DNA of 10,179 bases from Candidatus Bathyarchaeia archaeon (GCA_050012255.1 JBEKHN010000033.1:1-10179), one strand, 5' to 3'. Shown: positions 1,097 to 10,179, numbered from the stretch's first letter. Numbers and translations: made by a program. The notes: generated by a model from the letters alone, not told the origin.

Positions 1097-1346
1097 GCAC
1101 GCCGAAGACGGCCTAAAAAGGCAAAAGAAGTCGCAGGCAAAGCCGATGTGGGTGGAGAAGGCACAAGGCATCAAGCTTACACCCCCATCATTCCACCATT
1201 TTTCAATCTAGCGCGCGCAAAAGTTCTTGTTCATCTATTTTTAAATACACTTCTTTCAATTTATAGAATGAAAGAACATTGGAAGGTTGAATGTGCTTCG
1301 CAGTGACATAACCAGGTAGGGCTATGTTGCGCTTCGCAAGGTTTTC

Positions 1347-1466
1347 CTACTCTTGTGTAAGCGTTATTTCTATTGTTGAAACCATCCGTGCTCTGTTTTC
1401 GCCTTCCCTTGCTGGCATCTCCTCTGTTCCGATAGCGATTCTACTTACTTTTAATTGAGCAAAGCG
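1347..1466 (-). pseudogene. 3' fragment of a second alba copy
   Basis: 1342-1430 is 87/89 identical to 2883-2971. It translates to (RFAQ)LKVSRIAIGTEEMPAREGENRARMVSTIEITLTQE*; the N-terminal ~55 aa of Alba are absent. Confidence 0.88.
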
Positions 1467-1552
1467 CCCGCTTTGTGCACGAAGAGGTAGCCTTCGCCTT
1501 AGGTTAAACATATAACCAATCAAGAGGATATCCTGATTTGGCGAAGAAGTGA

Positions 1553-1681
1553 ATGCGCGAAGAGGCTAGGCGGAAGTGTAAAGCTTGTGGAAACCTGTTC
1601 ATGCCAGACAATGATTTTCAAGGCTTCTGCTCAGACAGGTGCTACCACGTTTTCAGAGGAGAAATAAAACCAAGTGCCTAG
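1553..1681 (+). CDS. 42-aa Cys4 zinc-finger mini-protein (FCS/TRASH-like treble clef; not in ORF track)
   Basis: MREEARRKCKACGNLFMPDNDFQGFCSDRCYHVFRGEIKPSA contains CxxCG-x-x-F...FCSxxC; AT-rich TTAAACATATAA lies about 40 nt upstream. Confidence 0.65.
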   Translation: MREEARRKCKACGNLFMPDNDFQGFCSDRCYHVFRGEIKPSA

Positions 1682-1755
1682 CATAATCTAGCCTTTCACG
1701 CACATTTAGAGGCAGCTTTTCTGGACGATTTTAGCGCGCGCCCTATCGTTTGAAT

Positions 1756-2757
1756 CTACGAGGAAGAAAGCAAAGATGACTGGTCTGGCACTTCTAGCTT
1801 CAACTGCCTTTTCAGGGTCTTGTAGCGGTTTCTCACCGTGACCTCAGTGACGCCTGCTGCTTCGGCAATGTCCTTCTGTGTCTTCTTCTCGTTGTTCTGC
1901 AAACAAGCAATATACAATGCTGCAGCAGCCAACCCCATAGGGTCTTTTCCGGCAGCAGCCCGTTTATCTCTGGCTTCTCGAAGAATCCGTATAGCAATTC
2001 CCTGGGTCTTGCCCGAAATTCCTGTTCTTTCAGCGATTTTAGAAACGTATGTGAGGGGGTCAGGGATGGACATGTGCATGTCAAGTTCACGTAGCAAGAG
2101 CCGGTAGCAACGAGCAACGTCCTTTTTGTCGACTAGGCTTGCCTCTGCGATTTCATGAAGTGCTCTTGGAGTTCCACTTCCACGGCAAGCCGCATAAGCC
2201 GCAGCAGCCGTTATGGCTGCGATAGACCTGCCGCGGACTAAGCTCTTATCTAAGGCTTTACGGTAAATGACCGCAGCCTTCTCTTTGATTGGCCGTGGAA
2301 TGTAGACCTTGTCTGATAGGCGGTCAAGCTCAGCCATTGCCTGGGCAAGGTTTCTGTCAACTGAAGAATGCGCCCTAGAACGGATCTGCCATTTCCTCAG
2401 GCGCCACATCTGCAGGCGCGTTGATAATGGAAGTTTTCTTCCAAAGGCGTCACGGTCAATCTGGCTAATGGCCGTTGACAAGCCTTTATCATGGACAGAA
2501 TAAGACGTTGGCATCCCAACGCGGCTTCTTGAGGCTTTCTCTTCCTGGGTGAAAGCGCGCCATTCTGGTCCTTTATCCATCATTTGCCCGTATAAGACGA
2601 GTCCGCAGTCGCCGCAAACAGTCTCACCCGTATCATAATCATGGATAAGGTTTACACTAGCACATTCCGGACACTTATCTGGCAGCGTTTGCTGAGACCG
2701 TGCCACTTTCTTTCTTTTTTCCATCTTTTCTGTCTCGATCATATGGAGTAGGGTCAT
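1756..2757 (-). CDS. tfb: Transcription initiation factor IIB
   Basis: Zn ribbon CPEC...CGDCG, B-reader GPEWRAF, cyclin repeats (LVRGRSI; GKDPMGLAAAALY; AGVTEVTVRNRYK). Exact start is uncertain (2757, 2742 or 2724). Confidence 0.98.
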   Translation of the reverse strand: MTLLHMIETEKMEKRKKVARSQQTLPDKCPECASVNLIHDYDTGETVCGDCGLVLYGQMMDKGPEWRAFTQEEKASRSRVGMPTSYSVHDKGLSTAISQIDRDAFGRKLPLSTRLQMWRLRKWQIRSRAHSSVDRNLAQAMAELDRLSDKVYIPRPIKEKAAVIYRKALDKSLVRGRSIAAITAAAAYAACRGSGTPRALHEIAEASLVDKKDVARCYRLLLRELDMHMSIPDPLTYVSKIAERTGISGKTQGIAIRILREARDKRAAAGKDPMGLAAAALYIACLQNNEKKTQKDIAEAAGVTEVTVRNRYKTLKRQLKLEVPDQSSLLSSS

Positions 2758-2887
2758 AACAGATAACCTTCACAAAACGCAATTCCTCGTATTACTCGTC
2801 AGAATTTGGGCGATTTAATTGTTAGTCCGCAGTGCGCGCTAGAAAGAAGGATATTACCGGTTGACGCTTTGTTCAGCAGGGCTTTTC

Positions 2888-3175
2888 CTACTCTTTTGTA
2901 AGCGTTATTTCTATTGTTGAAACCATCCGTGCTCTGTTTTCGCCTTCCCTTGCTGGCATCTCCTCCGTTCCTATGGAGGTTTTGCTTATTTTTAGGTCTT
3001 TTAGGAAGCGGTTTCTGGTTATTTCAGCTACGTCAACAGCTGTTGTTATTGCTCGTCCTCTTGCTTTCAGAACTACTTCCTTGGCATTGCTCGCCGATAT
3101 TCTTGTCATAACTGCTAGAACATAGTCCATTGGTGTTTTGTTTCCAATGAAAACGATTCCCGATTTTTCAGACAT
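2888..3175 (-). CDS. albA: DNA/RNA-binding chromatin protein Alba
   Basis: VFIGNKTPMDYVLAV, KARGRAITTAVDVAE, IGTEE, VSTIEI; SD AAGGAGTGA upstream. Confidence 0.96.
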   Translation of the reverse strand: MSEKSGIVFIGNKTPMDYVLAVMTRISASNAKEVVLKARGRAITTAVDVAEITRNRFLKDLKISKTSIGTEEMPAREGENRARMVSTIEITLTKE

Positions 3176-3276
3176 TTCAAATCACTCCTTTCATCATTGA
3201 CTTTAACGTGCAACGTTGTTGTGTTCTTCCGGTCTCTCAACAACAGAACGCTGTTGCCCTTATACTACGCATACTT

Positions 3277-3288
3277 CCTTATAAAGCG
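3277..3288 (-). promoter_or_regulatory. Probable alba TATA box (CTTTATAAGG on the minus strand)
   Basis: Canonical TTTATAA about 105 nt upstream of the ATG; the same CCTTATAAAG 10-mer is upstream of tbp (169-178). Confidence 0.45.
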
Positions 3289-3558
3289 ATCAAACAGCGG
3301 GGCGTTCTAGGATATTTCGATCGATGCCAAGGATTTTTGGCTTTAGCGCGTGCATTCTTATAGCTTTCTTAGGATGGGAAGGGTTAATCGCTTTGAGCGC
3401 TACTAAGTAGGGGAGCAAAAGAGCTTGAAGAGTCAACATCCATTAGGGTGATATACGGGGAAGCAGTGGTTAGCGGATGGAAATTCAAGAGTGGTATTCC
3501 GGATATTCTCTTCGGTCGGAGCTCGTAGCGCGCGCGAGGTGTTTCAAAACTGTTCCTT

Positions 3559-4047
3559 GTGGATGACGAGACGCTAAAGAAGGTGGCTGCGTTGTTCGGA
3601 GAGGATGCTGTTAGAGTAGTTGAAGCCCTCAAAGAGGTTCACGAGATTACTGATAATGAGATAGCGGATAAAACCCAAATGCGCCTCAACCTGGTTCGCA
3701 AGGCGCTCTACAGGCTCTACGACCACTCCATCGTGGCTCTCAGGCGGGCCCGCGACAAAGAAACAGGCTGGTTTGTCTTCAACTGGAGACTCCAACCAGA
3801 CCAACTGGAAGGCTTTATCCTAAACCAAAAGCGCCGTGTTCTAGAAAAACTGGAAATCCGGCTTGAATACGAGAAAAGCCACGAGTTTTACAGCTGCCAA
3901 ACGCCAGGCTGCAAACGATTCCCCTTCGAAGAGGCATTTGAGCTTCTCTTTAAATGCCCCGCCTGCAACAAACCAATGATGTACCTCAACAACGACCGTA
4001 TCATTGAGATCCTAACCCGAAAAATTGAACATACAAAAGTTCTGTAA
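3559..4047 (+). CDS. tfe: Transcription factor E alpha subunit
   Basis: Winged helix (ITDNEIA...LNLVRKALYRLY...RDKETGWFVFNW) plus Zn ribbon (CQTPGC...FEEAFELLFKCPAC). The start may be the in-frame CTG at 3550. Confidence 0.95.
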   Translation: MDDETLKKVAALFGEDAVRVVEALKEVHEITDNEIADKTQMRLNLVRKALYRLYDHSIVALRRARDKETGWFVFNWRLQPDQLEGFILNQKRRVLEKLEIRLEYEKSHEFYSCQTPGCKRFPFEEAFELLFKCPACNKPMMYLNNDRIIEILTRKIEHTKVL

Positions 4048-4222
4048 GCGTTGAAATGTTATAGAATTATTCCATCCGCAGATTTGAGATGCAAGTTATT
4101 TAGCGAAGTTCTTGGGATGGCGGATAAAACTTTACCCCAACCAAACCACCAACCAAAGACCCAACGACAGAATCTTGTAAGAAAAAAACCTAGAGGGAGA
4201 GGAAGCTATTCCTGGGCGCGCG

Positions 4223-4294
4223 GAAGAAGCTTATTCGTCCTACCATCCTTGTGAGGATACCAACAATTCCAAGAACCTTCTTAACATTCACCAT
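4223..4294 (-). pseudogene. 5' remnant of a flavodoxin-fold (WrbA/NADPH-dependent FMN reductase/iron-sulfur flavoprotein-like) gene
   Basis: MVNVKKVLGIVG, then after a 1-nt deletion (AT in place of a Ser codon) PHKDGRTNKLL. This matches the KVLGIxGSPRxxGxT FMN-binding loop. It ends at GCGCGCG 4216-4222. Confidence 0.65.
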
Positions 4295-4850
4295 AGACCA
4301 TTCTGCGCGTGCGACTAAAGCAGAAAAACAATCGCGTTTTCGACTTTGATGCTTCATAGCCTATCAGCGTCAAGGCCTTATTGGTTTAAAGGTGTTCAAC
4401 TAAGGTTTCGGGTGTTGCCCCCGCGTCAAGATTACATTGCGTTTCATATCTACTATCTAAACGTCCCTATTGCGCATGAAAGCCTCCCCTTTAGTCCTTT
4501 ATGCCTCCGAATACACTGAAAGCCTGCAACCTTTATTCTTGACCCATGACCCTTCCTTTCACCAAACCTAGAACACTATTGCTCACTTAATGAAGATGTT
4601 GACATCCTTATGCGTATCTAGAATGCCTACAATAATATCATCTTAGAAACAACATATTGCTGTATGACGACGTTTCTTGCACAAATTTACTTTTTCTTTT
4701 GTTGACTCTGACGCCATGGAGGCGCGCGCATTTCAATTTGTTACAATTAGTGAACTTTCGATCATTCTTCAAAATCACTTGTGACATCCTTCATAAGCGC
4801 CCGCGCTTTTTATCTACGTCCTCGCCTTTGTCATCGGTGTGTGAACGCGT

Positions 4851-6203
4851 TTGCTCAAAGAAGCTTGGACGCTTGCCATTGAAACTCTGAGCTGGATGGA
4901 AATGCGAAGATTAAGTGAGCCTTTAGCCTTCGCGAGAACGGTTAAACAGCTAGGCATAGAAGACCATGATTCTTTAAGATTAGCTCATATGCTTGTTTCT
5001 GAAACTGTTCGCCGGCAAAACTTCATAGACAAATTCATAAATGACACCATGAAACCTGCGACAATCAACGAATGCAGTTTGGGCGTGCAGGCGTTCCTGC
5101 GACTTTATGTTTATCAAATGAGAATAGCTAAAAACTGGTTCAGTCCGAACCTCAAAGAAGCTGGGAGCATAGCTAAACTGGCACGCAGCGTTCTAGGATG
5201 GAAAACGCTAATTAAAGTAGAGCCTTTCTTAGGCGTGCTACTGACCCAACGGCCTGCAATGGTGTTTGCACGTGCAGGTGACGAGGAACAGGTTGGGCTT
5301 CAAACTTTCCATCCAACATGGTTCGTAAAATACTGCTTCAAACTATTCGGCAGAAACCAAACTACTGCCATGCTAGAAGCAAATGCGCAGCCGCCGCCAA
5401 CTTATCTTAGACTGAACACGCTCAAAGCTGAGGAAAAGCAAATTCTTGAAAGACTCTCTGAAGAAGGCGTTAGACTTGAGAAGGTTGAACAGTTGCGCTA
5501 CACGTACAAAGTCGCAGCAGCAAAACAACCTGTAACCAGAGCACCAAGCTTCCAGGAAGGCCTATTCTTCGTTGAAGACAAGGCAAGCTGCTTCACAGTA
5601 GAAGCCGCAAACCCGCAACCTAGAATGACCGTCTTAGATGTTTGTGCGGCCCCAGGAGCAAAAACCACCTATCTGGCCCAGTTAATGCAGAACCGCGGCA
5701 GCATCCTCTCCATAGATTACTCAAAGCGCAGAATCACCGTCTGGAAAAGCCAAATTGCACACATGGGTGTAGAGATCGCCGAACCAATCATCGCAGATGC
5801 ACGTACCCCATTACCGTTCACGGAAGAGGCAGACATTATAGTTTTAGATCCACCATGCACAGGCACAGGCACCTTTGGAAAAGTGCCTTCAGCCAAATGG
5901 CGGCTTACCCCCCGGTCGATTGAACGAATGGCTGAAATTCAATGGCAAATGCTCAACAACTGCGCAGATAAGGTGAAGTCAGGAGGCATATTAATCTATT
6001 CTACATGCAGTGTAACAGCCGAAGAAAATGAAATGCTCATTGAAAAATTCCTGAAATGGCATCCAGAGCTTTCACTGAGCGAAATAACGCCAAGAATAGG
6101 CTCGTCCGGACTGAGAGGATTAGAAAAATGTCAAAGGCTCTATCCTCACACTCACAAATGCAACGGCTTCTTTATCGCAAAACTATCAAAGGACAAAATC
6201 TAA
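4851..6203 (+). CDS. RsmB/NOP2/Sun-family RNA (cytosine-5)-methyltransferase with N-terminal NusB-like region
   Basis: RLNTLK, SAM-binding VLDVCAAPGAKT, motif IV LDPPCTG, motif VI YSTCS, C-terminal GFFIAKL; TTG start. Confidence 0.95.
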   Translation: MLKEAWTLAIETLSWMEMRRLSEPLAFARTVKQLGIEDHDSLRLAHMLVSETVRRQNFIDKFINDTMKPATINECSLGVQAFLRLYVYQMRIAKNWFSPNLKEAGSIAKLARSVLGWKTLIKVEPFLGVLLTQRPAMVFARAGDEEQVGLQTFHPTWFVKYCFKLFGRNQTTAMLEANAQPPPTYLRLNTLKAEEKQILERLSEEGVRLEKVEQLRYTYKVAAAKQPVTRAPSFQEGLFFVEDKASCFTVEAANPQPRMTVLDVCAAPGAKTTYLAQLMQNRGSILSIDYSKRRITVWKSQIAHMGVEIAEPIIADARTPLPFTEEADIIVLDPPCTGTGTFGKVPSAKWRLTPRSIERMAEIQWQMLNNCADKVKSGGILIYSTCSVTAEENEMLIEKFLKWHPELSLSEITPRIGSSGLRGLEKCQRLYPHTHKCNGFFIAKLSKDKI

Positions 6204-6470
6204 ACAGAAACCAAGAGCGAGGAGGAAGAACGGGCGTGCGTGTTTCGCAAGGTTTTCTTCGCGCGCACTAGTGAAGGGTGTGTATGAGTATGGAAAATTG
6301 TAACAGATTTCTGTAACAATCCCGTCACTTTCCCCAAATTACGCGCGTTAGTGGGTCGCAAACTAGTTCCATGGGGTCGTCGTTTGGTTTGGAATAAAAT
6401 TTAGTCATAAAGCTAAAACAACAAGAGTAAAAAAGATGGAAACTCTTTATTTATTCACAATGCAATGCTC

Positions 6471-6512
6471 CTATTTCTGTTTCTTATGTCCCTTCTTCTT
6501 CTTTTTTCCCAT
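6471..6512 (-). CDS. 13-aa Lys-rich micropeptide MGKKKKKGHKKQK
   Basis: Strong SD GAGGTGA (6528-6522) 9 nt upstream, TATA-like TTTTAAT near 6554-6548, and T-rich terminator-like sequence downstream on the minus strand (about 6435-6409). Confidence 0.55.
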   Translation of the reverse strand: MGKKKKKGHKKQK

Positions 6513-6578
6513 TCTTGTTTTTCACCTCAAACCATTTATTGTGTATGATTAAAATTTAGTTCCCAAATCCAAAAGCGC

Positions 6579-6740
6579 CTATTTTTTACCTTTCGAATGT
6601 TTTGCAGGAAGCGAAACCTGCTTTTTCTGTTTTCTTTCCTGGTCTTTCTCTCTCTGTAGTTTTTTATGTTGCTCTAAACCTGCAGCTTTCTTTTCTCTTC
6701 TTGACAAAAACTCATCAACCTTAGCAGGCAATAGAAGCAT
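6579..6740 (-). CDS. About 50-aa basic, charged helical hypothetical protein
   Basis: MLLLPAKVDEFLSRREKKAAGLEQHKKLQREKDQERKQKKQVSLPAKHSKGKK, strongly purine-biased sense strand; alternative TTG start at 6731. Confidence 0.55.
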   Translation of the reverse strand: MLLLPAKVDEFLSRREKKAAGLEQHKKLQREKDQERKQKKQVSLPAKHSKGKK

Positions 6741-7127
6741 TACGCATTCTAAAACGTTGTCCTATTTTCTACAACTGAAGGGCGTATACTCGATTCCGAT
6801 ACTACCTATATACCTGCCCTATTATGGTATTGGTTATTTCCTACCCACTTGATTACTGCAACAAAGCACTGTACGCTGGACCGTGTATACTGCCTCCCAG
6901 TAGCCTTTTCTGAAGTCACCTAGCACGTAGAAATTTGGTTTGGTTTGGATAAAACTTTACCATTAGCCAAAGAGTTCATGCAGAAAGTTGTCAACGGGTT
7001 ATGTCATGACAGAATCATCACGCGCGCGCCCCCTAACTAGAGGGACAGAGTACAAGAGATGGGGGTGCAGAGTGAGGGCAGACTTATTGAGAAGGAAGTG
7101 TCATAAGAATATTGAGAGAGTCTGTTT

Positions 7128-7241
7128 ATGAGCAAGCGCAGACGGTTTGACAGACTCGAATGTCAGGGTTGCATTTACAAAGCGAGCACGTACTGCTGGA
7201 GACAATGCCCGTACAACATCTGGAAGAAGGAAGAATACTAA
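7128..7241 (+). CDS. 37-aa Cys4 mini-protein (CxxC-x7-CxxxCP)
   Basis: MSKRRRFDRLECQGCIYKASTYCWRQCPYNIWKKEEY, with ordered cysteine spacing and a basic N-terminus. Confidence 0.55.
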   Translation: MSKRRRFDRLECQGCIYKASTYCWRQCPYNIWKKEEY

Positions 7242-7317
7242 ATCTTGCGCTGAGCAAACGCAACAATTTTGCTCTCTTACACACGCGCTTGCACCAACGT
7301 CTTAGCCTGCTTAGATT

Positions 7318-7385
7318 GTCCTATGGAAACCAAGGCAAACCGATTATTATATTATATACTCGGTTTTCTCAATTTTCCATAGGAC
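7318..7385. repeat. 68-bp nested inverted repeat
   Basis: GTCCTATGGAAA-N7-AAACCGA-(16 nt AT-rich)-TCGGTTT-N7-TTTCCATAGGAC, with perfect 12-bp and 7-bp arms and equal spacers. Confidence 0.85.
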
Positions 7386-7407
7386 TACTCAATGGTCAAG
7401 CGCGCGC

Positions 7408-7464
7408 CTTGAAAGTTTAGGGTCGAAAGGAAAAATAAAAGTTGAATTGCAGACGGGAGAATAG
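7408..7464 (+). pseudogene. Probable 3' remnant of cdvB (ESCRT-III C-terminal winged helix)
   Basis: LESLGSKGKIKVELQTGE* resembles the LxxLxxKGxI winged-helix tail. Its stop is 5 nt before the cdvC ATG and it begins immediately after GCGCGCGC 7400-7407. Confidence 0.55.
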
Positions 7465-7469
7465 AGGTT

Positions 7470-8648
7470 ATGAGTGCTTCCCAAGAGCTTGAGAAGAATG
7501 CAACCAACTACGCGTTGGAAGCAGTGCGCTTGGACAAGCAAGGGTCAGGAGGCATGGCAATAACCATGTATCAGAAAGCCATAGAAAGCCTGCTTCAACT
7601 TGTTCAACTCTATCCTGAATATGGCTTGAACAAAGTCTACGTGCAAAAAGCGATCGCCTACCAAGAACGCATAAAGGCGATACAAGGCGCCGTAGGTATG
7701 CCGCGCGAGCAACCTCACGCAGAAGTTAGAAACGGCGAGTGTGAGGGTGAAACCAAAAAGAGTGAAGGCGGCAAGTCCAGTTACGAAGAACTGATAGTCA
7801 CAGAGAAGCTCAACGTGAAATGGGAGGAAGTCGTTGGACTGGACCCCGCAAAGAAGGCGGTGAAGGAGGCAATAATATATCCTGTTCAGAGACCCGACCT
7901 GTTTCCATTAGGATGGCCACGGGGAATATTGCTCTTCGGGCCGCCAGGTTGCGGGAAAACATTGCTGGGAGCAGCCGTCGCTACCGAAATAGACGCTACT
8001 TTCGTCTCAATTGACGCGGCTTCGATAATGTCAAAATGGTTGGGTGAAGCTGAACAGAATGTCGCACGCCTGTTCGGTCAAGTAAGAAAATCATCGTTGG
8101 AAGGAAAGCCTGCAATAGTCTTCGTCGATGAGCTTGACTCTTTGATGGGAAAACACACAAATGAAGTAGGCGGCGAAATCCGAGTTCGCAACCAGTTCTT
8201 GAAAGAGATGGACGGTATCGTAGACAAGGGCAAAAACCTTCACGTGTACGTGATAGGAGCGACCAACAAGCCTTGGGACTTGGACTGGGCTTTCATAAGA
8301 AGATTTCAGAAAAGAATTCTGGTCCCACTGCCTGACCACCATGCACGATTGATGATGTTCAAGCTCTACACTGCCAGTCTTCAACTTGCTCCAGATGTCG
8401 AGCTGCAGGAGCTCGCGAGACTCTCAGAGGGATTCTCAGGAAGCGACATAAGAGATTTCAACCAGTCGGCACAGCTAAAACTCATCGGCGAATTCTTTGA
8501 GTCGGGTAAGGCAAGCGACAGAATGGCCAAGCCACGACCGTTGACGATGGAAGATTTCAGGGAGATACTCGAAGAAAGAAAGCCAAGCGTATCCCTTGAC
8601 ATGCTGGCGCTTTACAACAGATGGTTTGAAGCGTTTAAGGCTCTCTAG
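7470..8648 (+). CDS. cdvC: CdvC/Vps4-like AAA+ ATPase with MIT domain
   Basis: MIT (YALEAVRLDKQG...AITMYQKAIE), Walker A GPPGCGKT, pore loop SKWLGE, Walker B IVFVDE, GATNKPW, RRF, C-terminal FKAL. Confidence 0.95.
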   Translation: MSASQELEKNATNYALEAVRLDKQGSGGMAITMYQKAIESLLQLVQLYPEYGLNKVYVQKAIAYQERIKAIQGAVGMPREQPHAEVRNGECEGETKKSEGGKSSYEELIVTEKLNVKWEEVVGLDPAKKAVKEAIIYPVQRPDLFPLGWPRGILLFGPPGCGKTLLGAAVATEIDATFVSIDAASIMSKWLGEAEQNVARLFGQVRKSSLEGKPAIVFVDELDSLMGKHTNEVGGEIRVRNQFLKEMDGIVDKGKNLHVYVIGATNKPWDLDWAFIRRFQKRILVPLPDHHARLMMFKLYTASLQLAPDVELQELARLSEGFSGSDIRDFNQSAQLKLIGEFFESGKASDRMAKPRPLTMEDFREILEERKPSVSLDMLALYNRWFEAFKAL

Positions 8649-8726
8649 AAGGAGGATGATGCAACAAGAGTGTGTTGAAGCGTTGGGTGGATAGGTTTAG
8701 CGCGCGCAGCATTAAAATGCTGAAAA

Positions 8727-9872
8727 TCACAGTAGTCTCTGTTGCAGGACGTTCTCCAACCGTTTTATTCTTTCTTGGATAGCCTCGGAATTATCGGACT
8801 CGAAATACAGGCTCGTAGCGTCTATCAGGTCTGCGCTTTGAAGGGCTTCTTCCTTGGAACTCAGCGTTTCCTTGGTTTTCTCGCAATGCGATTTGGTCCC
8901 GTCAAAAACCCTTTCCAGCTTTTTCGTCACATGAAAATCGAATCTGTGGACAACCGTACATCTTCCTCTGAAGTCAGTTGAATCTATCGGTTTTCTTTTT
9001 CGGGTGTCCGCGTATGCCTTTCCATGGAGCCGCCAGTCCCATCCGGCTTCCTCCCCAATCTCAATCAAATCTGGACATTTCCCTTCAACGCGGACATATG
9101 CAGAGCCGTAAGGTTCTTCTTTAAAGGGAAAAATGCCTTCCGGATGATCTTTAGGCAGAACTGAGCAGGATGCCGTCGTTTTGAATCCGCATCTGTTCAG
9201 GTCTTCCACAACTCTGGCAATTCCTAAGTCCACTCTAGGATAGCCATTCAAAACTCTGACGCGTCTTGACGTTTTCTCATAAAGCTCACGTGCCACGGTT
9301 GGTTGAAAAAGCCACACTTGCACCGGAGAATATTCTCTTTCCCAGTCCAATTTCTTTTGATTGTCTATTCCTGAATGTTGTGGTTCTTCATCTATTATAC
9401 AAAGAAAACCATATCTGCATCTCTTGTTGTTGATTTGCTCGCTGAGTTTTCTTAAGTCTTTCAGAACTCCCTTTTTCCTCCGAGTGACGAAGAGGCTCTG
9501 CATCATGGAAATGTCTTTGTAGAACCACTTGACCTCAACAAAGATACCGTGCATTGTGCCTCTTCTGATGAATGCCTCAGGATCCGTAATGTCGATATCG
9601 ATGAATATTGTTCTATCACTCTCTGCATAATTATTGAAGAAGTAATGACTTATTGGAGAATCAAGATGAACATAGCCTTGTCCGAACCTTTTCAGGCAGA
9701 ACCTCGCTAGATGGAAAACAATGTCTCTTTCTTCCCTAAAGTAAGGCCCCCAACATTTCTCAATACCATACTTGAAAGCTTCGTGTACACTGTAGAATTC
9801 GCAAAAGCCCTTCCATGCGCTCTCAAATTGTGCATATTCATCTGGCGTCAAAAATACCATCTCGCTGGACAA
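8727..9872 (-). CDS. Hypothetical two-domain protein: PD-(D/E)XK-like nuclease + TYW3-like domain
   Basis: N-half EERDIV...IDIDI...FVEVKW...KDLRKL; C-half VDLGIARVVEDLNRCGFKTTASCS. 381-aa ORF; start uncertain. Confidence 0.7.
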   Translation of the reverse strand: MSSEMVFLTPDEYAQFESAWKGFCEFYSVHEAFKYGIEKCWGPYFREERDIVFHLARFCLKRFGQGYVHLDSPISHYFFNNYAESDRTIFIDIDITDPEAFIRRGTMHGIFVEVKWFYKDISMMQSLFVTRRKKGVLKDLRKLSEQINNKRCRYGFLCIIDEEPQHSGIDNQKKLDWEREYSPVQVWLFQPTVARELYEKTSRRVRVLNGYPRVDLGIARVVEDLNRCGFKTTASCSVLPKDHPEGIFPFKEEPYGSAYVRVEGKCPDLIEIGEEAGWDWRLHGKAYADTRKRKPIDSTDFRGRCTVVHRFDFHVTKKLERVFDGTKSHCEKTKETLSSKEEALQSADLIDATSLYFESDNSEAIQERIKRLENVLQQRLL

Positions 9873-9990
9873 TAGAACAAATCAATTTAGAAATAAAACT
9901 TCTGGCCGCGCGCGCATGCTTGACTATCAACACGCTTATTAATAGCGCTATAGCCTTGACCTAAGGGCGCTAATTTTGGAGCACAACGCT

Positions 9991-10092
9991 ATGAGCGAAG
10001 AGGAAGAAGAAGAGGAAGAAGAAGAGGAAGAGGAAATAGAGGAAGAAGAATGGGGCATTAGGTGTGGAGCCAAGCTCTACGGAGCCCTATAG
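9991..10092 (+). CDS. 33-aa poly-Glu peptide
   Basis: MS-E13-I-E4-WGIRCGAKLYGAL, with mixed GAA/GAG codons held in frame from the ATG, GGAG at 9978-9981 and CTTATTAAT near 9935. Confidence 0.55.
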   Translation: MSEEEEEEEEEEEEEIEEEEWGIRCGAKLYGAL

Positions 10093-10164
10093 ACGGGGAA
10101 ACAACGCCTTGTTTTTAATACCCTGTTTTTTAATCTTAAAACCTTTGAAGGAGGTGACAGACAA

Positions 10165-10179
10165 ATGGCTAAGTGTCCG
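10165..10179 (+). CDS. Start of a Zn-ribbon protein (MAKCP...), truncated by the window end; possibly a second Cren7-like gene
   Basis: Perfect SD GGAGGTGA at 10150-10157 and TTTTTAAT boxes upstream; only 5 codons are visible. Confidence 0.55.

Follow-up and report, generated by a model that had tools for sequence, protein, structure and literature searches.

Nearly every gene in a 10,179-nt stretch of DNA from a Candidatus Bathyarchaeia archaeon (the window) is bracketed by copies of a short GC palindrome, which raises the question of whether these copies mark places where DNA was cut and rejoined, and what left them there. The window contains eight exact copies of GCGCGCGC (Table 1), against a mean of 0.12 in 200 dinucleotide-preserving shuffles, none of which reached eight. 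Those at 1211, 1734, 3528, and 8700 have the form TAGCGCGCGC. The sites lie 20 to 170 nt from gene ends, and none falls in a credible long open reading frame (ORF); only an 86-amino-acid (aa) ORF at 7160 to 7420 reads through one, at 7400. One-mismatch or short copies occur at seven places (those in Table 1 and 4305), and two more are intragenic, at 578 in tbp and 7702 in cdvC. The excess over chance, the absence from long genes, the four TAGCGCGCGC sites, and the degenerate copies had all been pointed out in a first-pass annotation of the sequence, which was correct in these respects.

Pfam assignments in the window comprise TBP, TFIIB, Alba, TFE-alpha, RsmB/F methyltransferase, and Vps4-like CdvC, in line with the gene names first proposed. 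The exception is the "nuclease" of the last module, whose 381-aa ORF has no Pfam or NCBIfam family match. By our own reading this ORF carries a D...EVK motif, and its module has no DNA match elsewhere in the genome of the window (G000) or in five relatives.

TABLE 1 Scars and modules along the window
Feature	Coordinates	Strand	Basis and remarks
Exact (GC)4 scar, TA to left	1211..1218		Motif count
alba' remnant, truncated copy of alba 3' part	1342..1453	-	92% direct repeat of 2883-2994
Degenerate scar GCGCCCGC	1464..1471		Motif variant
Exact scar, 22 nt beyond tfb stop	1734..1741		Motif count
tfb module, gene 1756-2757 plus flanks	1742..2831	-	Pfam TFIIB and Zn ribbon
Degenerate scar GTGCGCGC, tfb/alba boundary	2832..2839		Motif variant
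alba module, gene 2888-3175	2870..3317	-	Pfam Alba
Degenerate scar GCGCGTGC	3346..3353		Motif variant
Exact scar, 31 nt ahead of tfe	3528..3535		Motif count; G007 block begins at 3536
tfe module, gene 3559-4047	3536..4086	+	Pfam TFIIE_alpha
Short/degenerate scar GGGCGCGCGG	4214..4223		Motif variant; no homology-block end
Exact scar	4722..4729		Motif count; crossed by X1, X2, X3, and X4 contigs
Degenerate scar GCGCCCGCGC, left edge of rsmB module	4797..4806		Motif variant
rsmB/NOL1-type methyltransferase module, gene 4851-6203	4807..6259	+	Pfam Methyltr_RsmB-F
Degenerate scar TCGCGCGCAC	6259..6268		Motif variant; edges of blocks 4796-6266 and 6253-6961
Exact scar	7022..7029		Motif count; crossed by X2 record 13
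Repeated module, small ORF 7160-7420	7066..7399	+	Homologous copies
Exact scar, two modules meet	7400..7407		Motif count; crossed by X2 record 14
cdvC module, cdvC 7470-8648 plus 51 nt after	7408..8699	+	Pfam Vps4-like CdvC
Exact scar, convergent genes on either side	8700..8707		Motif count; crossed by X1 record 8 and X2 record 15
Module with 381-aa ORF	8708..9907	-	ORF only, no known family
Exact scar, then ATGCTTG	9908..9915		Motif count
Repeat reaching contig end	9914..10179		Homologous copies

The gene-sized blocks between sites are found at scattered locations in relatives. Five of the eight exact sites (1734, 3528, 7400, 8700, and 9908) have a BLAST block ending no more than 3 nt away, whereas 4722 and 7022 have no abutting block edge, the latter none within 40 nt. 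The tfb module (1736 to 2828) is present scar to scar in G007 at 93%, where its edge falls at 1736; a block of the window's own contig C2 has its edge at 1739, and the 1734 site is kept in G001. The tfe module corresponds to G007:C2:1029-1575 at 93%, and alba blocks (2870/2880 to 3289/3317) occur at several places in each relative. The rsmB block (4796 to 6266), whose two ends carry sites here as in G001, is 97% identical to G001:1423971-1425441 but only 69% identical to the other copy in G000 (C7). Copies of the 7066 to 7399 module (~90%; C2, C22, and three in G001) all stop at 7399 to 7403, and copies of the terminal repeat (C2 and C22 ends, G001, and G008) all begin at 9914; the ATGCTTG after the 9908 scar is also found where the family-A terminal repeat starts. 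The scar at 2832 is old, as G004 (L003:2571) has the identical variant at the matching place.

Truncated genes also end at sites, as first reported, with two of three proposed remnants substantiated. The alba' remnant matches alba copies only over residues 21 to 58 (tblastn) and ends 11 nt short of the degenerate site at 1464; a 95% block common to the window and G001 begins at 1451. The cdvB-like tail is real but lies to the right of the 7400 site, not to the left, where positions 7408 to 7467 match the final 19 codons of the cdvB-like gene ahead of core cdvC. The third, a flavodoxin fragment at 4051 to 4254, found no backing in Pfam, NCBIfam, or tblastn searches. The cdvC module as a whole is 81% identical to the core locus, of gene order cdvA-cdvB-cdvC, at C18:25208-26501 and G001:54610-55900. 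The two scars are the exact limits of this homology, and at these points the core loci lack the motif.

The junctions are also found in Logan contigs, independent assemblies from four runs (X1 to X4) of four studies; the window itself may come from the X1 sample. X1 record 4 spans 4111 to 6210 with no differences, and X3 records 21, 22, and 24 cross sites as well. An alternative join of the kind that the first-pass annotation had proposed to look for was found in X4, where a contig joins 1210 to 1734 with 8 letters common to both ends. This shows that the 523-bp inter-scar block is present or absent in nature, and makes 1211, a sixth exact site, one end of a population-level joint.

Genome-wide, G000 contains 368 runs against ~25 expected, and the proposed count of intergenic versus coding DNA placed 292 of them outside long ORFs. 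Single-contig G001 has 419 sites, in arrays of up to 23 in 27 kb. Bracketing of nearly every gene, as claimed for the window, holds locally and not genome-wide, where only ~8 to 13% of intergenic regions have a site; it is a local trait of accessory DNA. The consensus form is tA-GCGCGCGC-Ta, with conservation limited to 2 nt on each side and otherwise unique flanks (1,444 of 1,574). Enrichment is confined to run lengths of 8 and 10, the counts of A(GC)nT and of its control being 479 versus 407 for n = 2, 74 versus 1 for n = 4, 28 versus 4 for n = 5, and 1 versus 0 for n = 6. The motif is found in all 10 sister species, with 7 to 114 copies of AGCGCGCGCT in each (reversed control, 0 to 4), and is patchy in other genera of the family.

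Comparison with a closed sister genome of ~93% identity (364 sites versus 3,000 random intergenic controls) showed that homology and synteny breaks are far commoner at sites. A single homology block ended at 22.8% of sites versus 6.4% of controls, and blocks of both sides at 6.0% versus 0.6%; collinear spanning was seen at 11% versus 46%. Blocks start at or just right of sites and end at or just left of them, and 55% of sites lie in DNA without homology to the sister species. In 26 cases (10 in G000 and 16 in G001), the motif stands in place of 35 to 3,292 bp of ordinary DNA. None of the 26 long alleles has the motif at either junction, ORFs cross these junctions, and outgroups have the long form in both events tested (G007 in one; G003, G008, and G009 in the other). 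The absence of the motif from the long-allele junctions and the long form in outgroups indicate that the sites are derived junction scars, located at deletion and homology breakpoints. Among 122 indels, the short allele has (GC)4 in 33 and GCGCGC in 13, and 63 are without any GC motif. Deletions are mostly 35 bp to a few kilobases, with a maximum of ~14.7 kb.

The earlier reading of scars left by gene capture thus stands as far as scars at joints are concerned, but not for a preexisting, sequence-directed recombination site. The core cdvC locus and all 26 long alleles lack the motif where the scar later lies; it is added in the making of the joint. Afterwards, the sites decay by point mutation, the collinear sites that are not intact in G001 (25 of 41) being mostly one or two substitutions off. 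Only ~4 plain insertions of 8 to 10 nt were seen among collinear sites, and most scars replace DNA.

The first-pass annotation knew of no described archaeal system of this kind, yet the same (T)A-GCGCGC forms the ends of IS5/IS1182-like insertion sequences and of at least 54 miniature elements (MITEs) in these genomes. G000 and G001 together have 64 terminal-repeat pairs, comprising 54 of 134 to 305 bp, three IS copies of 1,080 to 1,119 bp, and cargo-bearing units of up to 7.6 kb; all four terminal-repeat subfamilies begin with GCGCGC. The transposase has DUF772 and DDE_Tnp_1 domains, with IS1182 and IS5 as best named matches at scores below the curated cutoffs of both. Most MITEs are flanked by TA..TA, and bare scars share this preference, which is not absolute. 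At the one clean MITE-versus-scar locus, C3:43050, G000 has a MITE and G001 has TA-GCGCGCGC-TA; three further loci have a repeat-bounded element facing a bare or degenerate scar. Two repeat-bearing insertions, C22:25996 and C23:10769, face empty alleles without (GC)4, and the latter replaces 8 nt with no clear duplication. Across genera, terminal repeats occur in four of the five scar-richest others, and they are absent in 19 of 20 scar-poor relatives.

The most likely origin of the scars, to which we give an even chance of being correct, is that they are the outermost 4 to 5 bases of both ends of departed IS5/IS1182-like transposons and MITEs. An element would insert without target duplication, the DNA between two cut points being lost, and would later be excised a few bases inside its ends, with the flanks rejoined as A-GCGC joined to GCGC-T, followed by neutral decay. 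The insertion-with-deletion step is required because most scars replace DNA and few are plain insertions. Insertion with target replacement or deletion and no duplication is described for the bacterial IS5/IS1182 group (PMC5678879; bioRxiv 10.1101/2024.06.02.596822), and the literature searched contains no record of this group being excised with end bases left behind. The restriction of enrichment to lengths 8 and 10 is consistent with symmetric cutting within the 6-nt GC end, 4 or 5 nt in, although the cut position, the excision itself, and the identity of these elements as makers of most scars are our extrapolation. A gene flanked by two elements could move as cargo, and loss of the elements would leave scar-gene-scar; repeated rounds in accessory DNA, with selection for intact genes, could yield scar-bracketed single-gene modules as in the window.

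The main problem for a transposon origin is that some scar-rich genomes show no such element, and scar number does not track terminal-repeat number. G004, G008, G009, and G059 have 39, 56, 82, and 40 perfect 10-mers, with a perfect-copy share as high as in G000, and just 0 to 2 terminal-repeat matches, a provisional count given that the patterns miss at least one subfamily; a profile search found no DDE_Tnp_1 match in G004, G008, or G059. Only 13 of 368 scars in G000 and 13 of 419 in G001 adjoin a repeat-like arm, the frames of all three IS copies are split or broken, and G001 has no element of ≥500 bp in ≥3 copies. Such genomes would be expected if another cut-and-rejoin process stamped the 8- to 10-nt palindrome and IS1182-like elements merely landed there, an explanation that we consider unlikely but of some weight. 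IS1272, of the same group, is described as targeting inverted repeats (PMC5678879), the GC runs beside MITEs (6+6, 6+7, and 6+8) add up to what a 4-nt duplication would make of sites 8, 9, or 10 nt long, and most events with added filler have 0 to 2 nt of microhomology. However, this process names no source for the constant sequence, the two empty alleles without (GC)4 show that the elements need no preexisting site, and one terminal hexamer is kept in four subfamilies, as in a functional transposon tip. Ku/LigD end joining, tested as the candidate scar maker, fits poorly: Ku is present in 8 of 61 family genomes, four of which have 0 or 1 scar 10-mer, and absent in five genomes with 16 to 63 copies at 91 to 99% completeness.

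Integron-like cassettes, inserted, excised, and inverted by a site-specific recombinase with a (GC)4 crossover core, are improbable. They would account for the polymorphism between scar-module-scar and a single scar (the 1210-to-1734 joint; C2:86879), for the same modules in other order and orientation in G001, and for its arrays. Nevertheless, source loci have no site, the unique flanks leave no binding arms, no recurrent gene family was found in or beside modules, modules come with upstream regions of their own and in either orientation, and a block between identical 8- to 10-bp repeats can be lost without a dedicated enzyme. A selected cis-element, for example one that binds a dimeric regulator or a chromatin protein, acts as an insulator, or forms Z-DNA at gene boundaries, is very improbable. 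The motif is palindromic and mostly intergenic, and some sites are common to species ~10% apart, but densities in divergent, tandem, and convergent spacers are alike (0.55, 0.65, and 0.86 per kb), few spacers have a site, over half of the sites lack homology in the sister species, and the DNA displaced by the site is unrelated to it and takes in portions of ORFs. Conservation in collinear relatives, suggested earlier as a regulatory sign, amounts to 16 of 41 sites intact, about the chance expectation at 93% identity.

An iterated palindrome like HIP1, with a DNA methyltransferase and biased repair as its drivers, is barely credible: the octamer is overrepresented (434 versus ~25 expected) and HIP1 is linked to deletions and transformation in the literature consulted, but only 2 of the 11 genomes in the genus have C5 methyltransferase PF00145, genes seldom contain the motif, which is not conserved and is made by insertion or replacement rather than substitution, and a term search of the HIP review PMC4390886 returned neither archaea nor GCGCGC. 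An assembly, scaffolding, or library artifact, e.g., a linker at contig joins, or the ligation or amplification chimera considered earlier, has next to no probability: the sites resemble gap linkers, a short constant filler in place of missing DNA, and 419 occur in one single-contig genome, but contigs of four studies bridge them, which rules out an assembly artifact, orthologous sites, mutated variants included, are common to several species, and degenerate copies are present.

Among known systems, cyanobacterial HIP1 (GCGATCGC) is likewise a hyperabundant, lineage-restricted octamer palindrome, but the archaeal motif is mostly extragenic, lacks both conservation and a matching methyltransferase, and originates through insertion or replacement. 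Integron cassettes share single-gene units between palindromic sites, arrays, and unit presence or absence; unlike attC, the sites here are 8 to 10 bp, without conserved arms and in mixed orientation, the units bring their own upstream regions, and the source loci have no site. Cut-and-paste excision of Tc1/mariner elements leaves at the empty donor site a palindromic footprint of a few terminal bases from both ends, often adjoining TA. The scars resemble it in being palindromic, putatively from both element ends, and often near TA, but no IS630/Tc1-type transposase was found in G000, TA is preferred and not obligatory, and the remnant mostly lies at a deletion, not at a plain empty site. As in composite transposons and cargo-carrying MITE pairs, repeat-bounded units of 0.5 to 7.6 kb contain ordinary genes, and one gene-carrying 1.77-kb unit has only a bare scar as its counterpart in the other genome; the window modules differ in being flanked by scars only, the elements having gone, and their movement is presumed. 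IS1272 of Staphylococcus (IS1182 family) replaces its target without duplication, a process termed "inverted-repeat replacing" and irreversible (PMC5678879). The archaeal elements are similar in transposase domains and best named match, terminal inverted repeats, a tie to small palindromes, and the removal of target DNA at C23:10769; they differ in subthreshold transposase scores, in a length of ~1.1 to 1.2 kb with a conserved GCGCGC tip, in their archaeal hosts, and, compared with the irreversibility described, in hundreds of bare 8- to 10-nt remnants. An IS5/IS1182 element in Escherichia coli C bridged a 62-kb deletion without duplication ("IS-Del"; bioRxiv 10.1101/2024.06.02.596822), so that transposon sequence occupies the deletion junction, as in the first step proposed here. 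In that case the whole IS stays at the junction, whereas in these archaea the tips alone would remain, at deletions that are mostly much shorter.

Eight exact copies of GCGCGCGC are present in the window, as counted in the first-pass annotation, against a mean of 0.12 in dinucleotide-preserving shuffles, of which 0 of 200 reached eight. TAGCGCGCGC is indeed read at four of the eight, and about seven one-mismatch or shortened copies do lie between the genes. The gene names assigned earlier (TBP, TFB, Alba, TFE, RsmB, and CdvC) were upheld; the flavodoxin fragment found no support in domain-family or translated-sequence searches. The window is the entire contig C33 (10,179 bp) of the source genome, G000 (2.35 Mb in 38 contigs), and parts of it are present in 20 public sequencing runs from 12 studies. 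The sites, hereafter called scars, are real, as they are crossed by independently assembled contigs from four runs (X1 to X4), each from another study, which rules out an assembly artifact. Record 4 of X1, possibly the source sample of the window, spans 4111-6210 with zero differences, and record 8 spans 8672-9992; X2 (records 9 and 12 to 15), X3 (records 21, 22, and 24), and X4 (records 25 and 26), which are not the source sample, contribute further crossing contigs. In one X4 contig, 1210 is joined to 1734 with eight shared letters, showing that the 523-bp block between these two sites is present or absent in nature. The G+C content of the window is 45.5%, compared with approximately 48% in large contigs, and an Rfam search of the window gave zero matches. 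The window and contigs C19, C24, C32, and C34 have a site density 3 to 10 times the usual, as expected of accessory DNA.

Throughout the source genome, 434 overlapping 8-mers are observed where a second-order Markov model predicts about 25, and these make up 368 separate runs. By length, 201 are of 8 nt, 123 of 9 nt, and 63 of 10 nt, and only six are longer; because the lengths stop at 10, a microsatellite was rejected. Of the 368 runs, 292 lie outside open reading frames (ORFs) of at least 120 amino acids, which cover 81% of the genome, and 73 lie inside long ORFs. Site density is alike in tandem (0.65 per kb), divergent (0.55), and convergent (0.86) spacers, on which ground a promoter or terminator element was rejected, and only 8 to 13% of spacers hold a site. 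Among 307 exact (GC)4 cores, A is found at −1 in 57%, T at +8 in 49%, T at −2 in 37%, and A at +9 in 38%, with no conservation beyond 2 nt on either side, and 1,444 of 1,574 flanking arms in the source genome and its sister G001 are unique. The motif therefore stands alone as a palindrome, tA-GCGCGCGC-Ta, rather than belonging to a larger repeat, and the 8- to 10-nt runs do not form a REP- or MITE-type unit of at least 20 nt with conserved sequence or a hairpin at the site itself. Counted against reversed controls, the enrichment of A(GC)nT is limited to n = 4 (74 versus 1) and n = 5 (28 versus 4), n = 6 giving 1 versus 0. A doubled 4-nt GCGC target was rejected, since AGCGCT is not enriched (479 versus 407) and an exact-GCGC difference occurs in no collinear pair. 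A small family of sites, including C12:11219, C1:159576, C2:95436, C34:2791, and C3:116594 of the source genome, has tandem TTTTGCATATACG copies on one side and a conserved 30-nt arm on the other, and is another repeat element with the same GC joint.

The motif is common in the genus and patchy beyond it. AGCGCGCGCT occurs in 7 to 114 copies in all 10 other species of the genus (0 to 4 for the reversed control) and in 0 or 1 copies in the 20 nearest genomes of other genera. Its spread over a wider sample of 60 genera in the family is uneven, with eight genomes outside the genus having at least 20 copies (63, 53, 45, 40, 40, 35, 23, and 22) and most others 0 to 2.

Comparison of the window with five sister species reveals blocks of homology that start and stop at the sites and are located at scattered places (see table), and within the source genome, too, blocks matching the window begin and end at sites. 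The closed genome of one sister species, G001 (2,346,764 bp), carries 419 sites, in arrays of up to 23 per 27 kb, and its core identity to the source genome is 90 to 95%. Between these two genomes, 58 of 711 block edges (at least 85% identity) abut a site within 10 nt, the starts of blocks lying at or right of sites and the ends at or left of them. Homology breaks are enriched at sites over 3,000 random intergenic controls, in agreement with the earlier claim that sites coincide with breakpoints. Of 364 sites classified, 11% are spanned collinearly (46% of controls), 22.8% have one block ending at the site (6.4%), 6.0% have blocks on both sides ending there (0.6%), and 55% have homology on neither side (38%).

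The motif takes the place of other DNA. Where both flanks could be placed, 10 sites of the source genome and 16 of G001 replace 35 to 3,292 bp of ordinary, mostly single-copy DNA that has the motif at neither junction in the other genome; in eight further placeable cases, the long allele has a site at one junction or at both. The long-allele junctions are crossed by ORFs. Outgroups have the long form at two events (G007 at C2:65894; G003, G008, and G009 at C11:34962), which indicates that the scar allele is derived; at C8:16973, G007 shows another short arrangement that lacks a scar. The filler is 8 to 10 nt, a flanking A or T is also inserted in about one-third to one-half of events, and microhomology is mostly 0 to 2 nt. 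Among 122 indels between collinear blocks, each measuring 50 bp or more in one genome against 30 nt or fewer in the other, (GC)4 is present in the short allele of 33 and GCGCGC in that of 13, the motif is confined to long-allele junctions in 13 only, and 63 have no motif. The mark therefore goes mainly with DNA loss. With approximately 27 to 38% of the indels of at least 50 bp between these two sister species carrying it, this is one of the major ways in which genomes of the lineage change. G001 retains 16 of 41 collinear sites intact, with one or two differing positions in most of the remainder, from which the sites are seen, at the level of aligned sequence, to decay by substitution; 16 of 41 is the prediction from approximately 93% identity, so that selection on the sites is not seen. 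Two islands of approximately 14.7 kb and 13.1 kb (C25:11013-25667 of the source genome, and a G001 island at the junction C23:13616-13625 of the source genome) are each found in one genome only; one is replaced by a short GC joint (GCGCGCG) in the other genome, and one is bounded by GC sites.

Positions in the window of homology blocks, extra-copy genes, and other features
Feature	Position	Match or remark
Homology block	1736-2828	G007
Homology block	3536-4086	G007
Homology block	4796-6266	G001, 97%
Homology block	7080-7399	Three places in G001
Homology block	7407-8698	Core cdvC locus of all five species, 76-81%
Homology block	9914-10179	G001 and G008; right end of the window, a repeat also at the ends of C2 and C22
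Extra-copy gene	219-779	
Extra-copy gene	1756-2757	
Extra-copy gene	2888-3175	
Extra-copy gene	3559-4047	
Extra-copy gene	4851-6203	
Extra-copy gene	7470-8648	
cdvC module	7408-8699	
56-aa ORF	926-1096	Weak zinc-ribbon match
381-aa ORF	8727-9872	Minus strand; no family match
GGTTTGGTTTGGATAAAACTTTA repeat	4112-4157	Found in both orientations
GGTTTGGTTTGGATAAAACTTTA repeat	6382-6403	Found in both orientations
GGTTTGGTTTGGATAAAACTTTA repeat	6936-6959	Found in both orientations

The cdvC module illustrates how the scars relate to the genes between them. It shares 81% identity with the core cdvA-cdvB-cdvC locus, both on C18 and in G001. Homology starts within the last 19 codons of a cdvB-like gene, directly after the scar at 7400, and extends 51 nt beyond the cdvC stop, where the scar at 8700 follows immediately. 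Neither end point carries the motif in the core cdvC loci. The exact ends of homology at scars identify the module as an extra, diverged copy whose two sides have been trimmed back to just beyond the gene. Further modules also represent extra copies, with identities of 86% (TBP), 80% (TFB), 91% (Alba), and 69% (RsmB) to other copies in the source genome. The window reads as a collection of extra diverged copies (69 to 91%) of core information-processing and cell-division genes, with scars 20 to 170 nt from the gene ends. Each relative has several tbp and alba copies, and no gene family was found to recur in the modules or to travel with them. The 381-aa ORF has no DNA match in the source genome or in five relatives; a D...EVK motif noted by eye may recall PD-(D/E)XK nucleases. 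The 56-aa ORF has 55 to 73% identity to several loci of the source genome and G001. The GGTTTGGTTTGGATAAAACTTTA repeat matches many loci in relatives, is found at several joints of the public contigs, and may be a promoter-like or a small mobile element.

The shared start sequence of some long alleles led to families of miniature elements (MITEs) of 134 to 305 bp with ends GCGCGC-ATGCSTGTTCCKAAAWT. In a check for target-site duplication, both flanks were TA in about 9 of 27 MITEs and one flank in most. A scan of the source genome and G001 retrieved 64 terminal-repeat pairs, made up of 54 of MITE size, three insertion sequence (IS) copies of 1,080 to 1,119 bp, and cargo units of 0.5 to 7.6 kb that carry ordinary genes, two of them with inner scars. 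The elements thus have inverted repeats at their two termini, and derivatives that are non-autonomous exist as well. The repeats fall into four subfamilies with different interiors, all beginning with GCGCGC (ATGCGTGTTCC, CAGCTTGTTGC, TGGCTTGTCCC, and TAGCCTGTTTAG); tip and flank preference are common to scars and elements. The IS copies encode transposases with DUF772 and DDE_Tnp_1 domains; intact proteins of this kind occur in G046 and G003 (321 and 331 aa), and broken copies on C24 of the source genome. Their best named matches are IS1182 (166 to 171 bits; cutoff, 270) and IS5 (IS5_4, 99 to 121 bits; cutoff, 140), both below the NCBIfam curated cutoffs, and on these scores the transposases are relatives of the two families rather than filed members. 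The window itself contains no transposase gene of this kind. IS630/Tc1-type transposases (PF13358) were rejected, with 0 matches in the source genome and presence in 2 of 41 genomes of the family, as were rve-type transposases, which are sporadic, mostly weak, and not at repeat-bounded elements. A terminal-repeat-like end lies within 300 nt of 11 of 76 contig ends of the source genome, and a (GC)4 run within 300 nt of 10 of 76; these repeat elements break the assembly.

Occupied and scarred forms of one locus connect the elements with the scars. At C3:43050, the source genome has a TA-flanked MITE and G001 (position 1435565) has TA-GCGCGCGC-TA, the one clean pair; three less clean loci pair an occupied element with a remnant. 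A 1.77-kb repeat-bounded cargo unit of G001 is a bare scar in the source genome, and a 2.2-kb stretch of the source genome, from a degenerate scar to a MITE, is a bare scar in G001. Across genera, scars co-occur with the elements in most cases: the repeats are found in four of the five scar-richest other genera (64, 46, 18, and 2 hits) and are absent from 19 of 20 scar-poor relatives. The exceptions are G004, G008, G009, and G059, which hold 39 to 82 perfect 10-mers and 0 to 2 terminal-repeat hits, with a proportion of perfect copies that is not lower; no DDE_Tnp_1 match was found in G004, G008, or G059. Along 400 kb of G004 (contig C7), 18 sites show the usual flank preference, no repeat pairs are present, and the site flanks are too diverged for placement in the source genome or G001. 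The terminal-repeat patterns had missed the fourth subfamily until ends were read directly, so hidden subfamilies are possible. A repeat-like arm lies next to only 13 of 368 scars in the source genome and 13 of 419 in G001, the IS copies of both genomes are few and broken, and no IS of at least 500 bp is present in G001 in at least three copies at 85% identity or more. For these reasons (element-poor but scar-rich genomes, few adjoining arms, and few broken IS copies), the chances that the scars are transposon end remnants stand about even.

Another joining process could instead write the motif, with IS elements merely preferring such palindromes; we consider this alternative unlikely. The scar-rich genomes that are poor in elements leave room for such a process; two repeat-bearing insertions face alleles free of (GC)4, one of them replacing 8 nt with no duplication, which indicates that the elements need no pre-existing site. 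Ku and LigD were rejected as the stamping machinery: Ku first looked specific to the genus (8 of 11 genomes versus 1 of 20 other relatives), but the association disappeared in a wider sample, where Ku is present in only 8 of 61 genomes of the family and bears no relation to scars. The source genome does have, on C10 (L181:6504-10306), a complete bacterial-type end-joining operon with a LigD primase-polymerase (PolDom), Ku, a ligase-3′-phosphoesterase fusion, and then DUF72. Only 2 of the 11 genomes in the genus have a C5 methyltransferase (PF00145), which is not associated with the scars.

Under the transposon explanation, an element would first insert with replacement of target DNA and no duplication, by analogy with IS1272 and IS5/IS1182 in bacteria. 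For IS1272, insertion that replaces target DNA with no duplication is documented (PMC5678879), and an IS5/IS1182 element has been observed to span a deletion of 62 kb, again with no duplication (bioRxiv 10.1101/2024.06.02.596822). Excision would follow, with cuts a few bases interior to the ends, and rejoining would leave 4+4 or 5+5 terminal bases, which fits the enrichment of exactly 8 and 10. We infer this excision chemistry, including the cuts inside element ends, and the origin of most scars in it. Slippage between the terminal GCGCGC pair of a MITE, which predicts 6-nt runs, was not favored; the count of 6-nt runs includes the IS and MITE ends themselves. Pairs of elements could carry genes as cargo, and later loss of the elements would yield a gene between two scars; repeated deletion in accessory DNA, with selection for intact genes, would bring scars as close to the gene ends as they are in the window. 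A bolder version, which we regard as fairly unlikely, is a transposase-driven "cut, stamp and shuffle," in which arbitrary segments, from tens of bases through whole genes to islands of more than 10 kb, are cut out and each joint receives an 8- to 10-nt GC palindrome as its stamp. The stamps would then act as minimal ends, and single genes with their own promoters would be moved, inverted, lost, or captured between related species.

Prokaryotic deletions, insertions, and gene captures normally leave no trace. If the scars are transposon end remnants, they provide a countable record of such past events, and would account for the gain of additional core information-processing gene copies (here TBP, TFB, Alba, TFE, RsmB, and CdvC) as single-gene pieces pruned to gene boundaries. 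In metagenome-assembled genomes of the family, they can also serve in practice to mark accessory DNA and breakpoints. Should the transposon link fail, the interest would be much greater, since a fixed sequence would then be written by a new kind of joining process. Cut, stamp and shuffle, if true, would amount to a functional counterpart of integrons that relies on a different enzyme, and every past joint would stay readable in the genome.

The nearest known systems are replacement insertion by IS1182/IS5, IS-bridged deletions, eukaryotic-type excision footprints, composite transposons, integron cassettes, and HIP1. As in excision footprints, the same locus is found occupied and as a remnant, at C3:43050. 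Integron attC sites have approximately 60 to 140 bp with conserved inner and outer repeats, whereas nothing is conserved here beyond 2 nt. HIP-type palindromes are abundant inside genes and selectively maintained, whereas 73 of 368 runs lie in long ORFs and 16 of 41 are conserved here; nor does a cognate orphan methyltransferase accompany the palindrome across the lineage, within the C5 class (PF00145) searched. No description of GCGCGCGC scars or of IS footprints in archaea was found within the library of papers searched. In none of these known systems is a fixed palindromic remnant of 8 to 10 nt, present in hundreds of copies, combined with deletion junctions and with single-gene modules, and there is a real chance that the scars are something more unusual than a variant of known transposon behavior.
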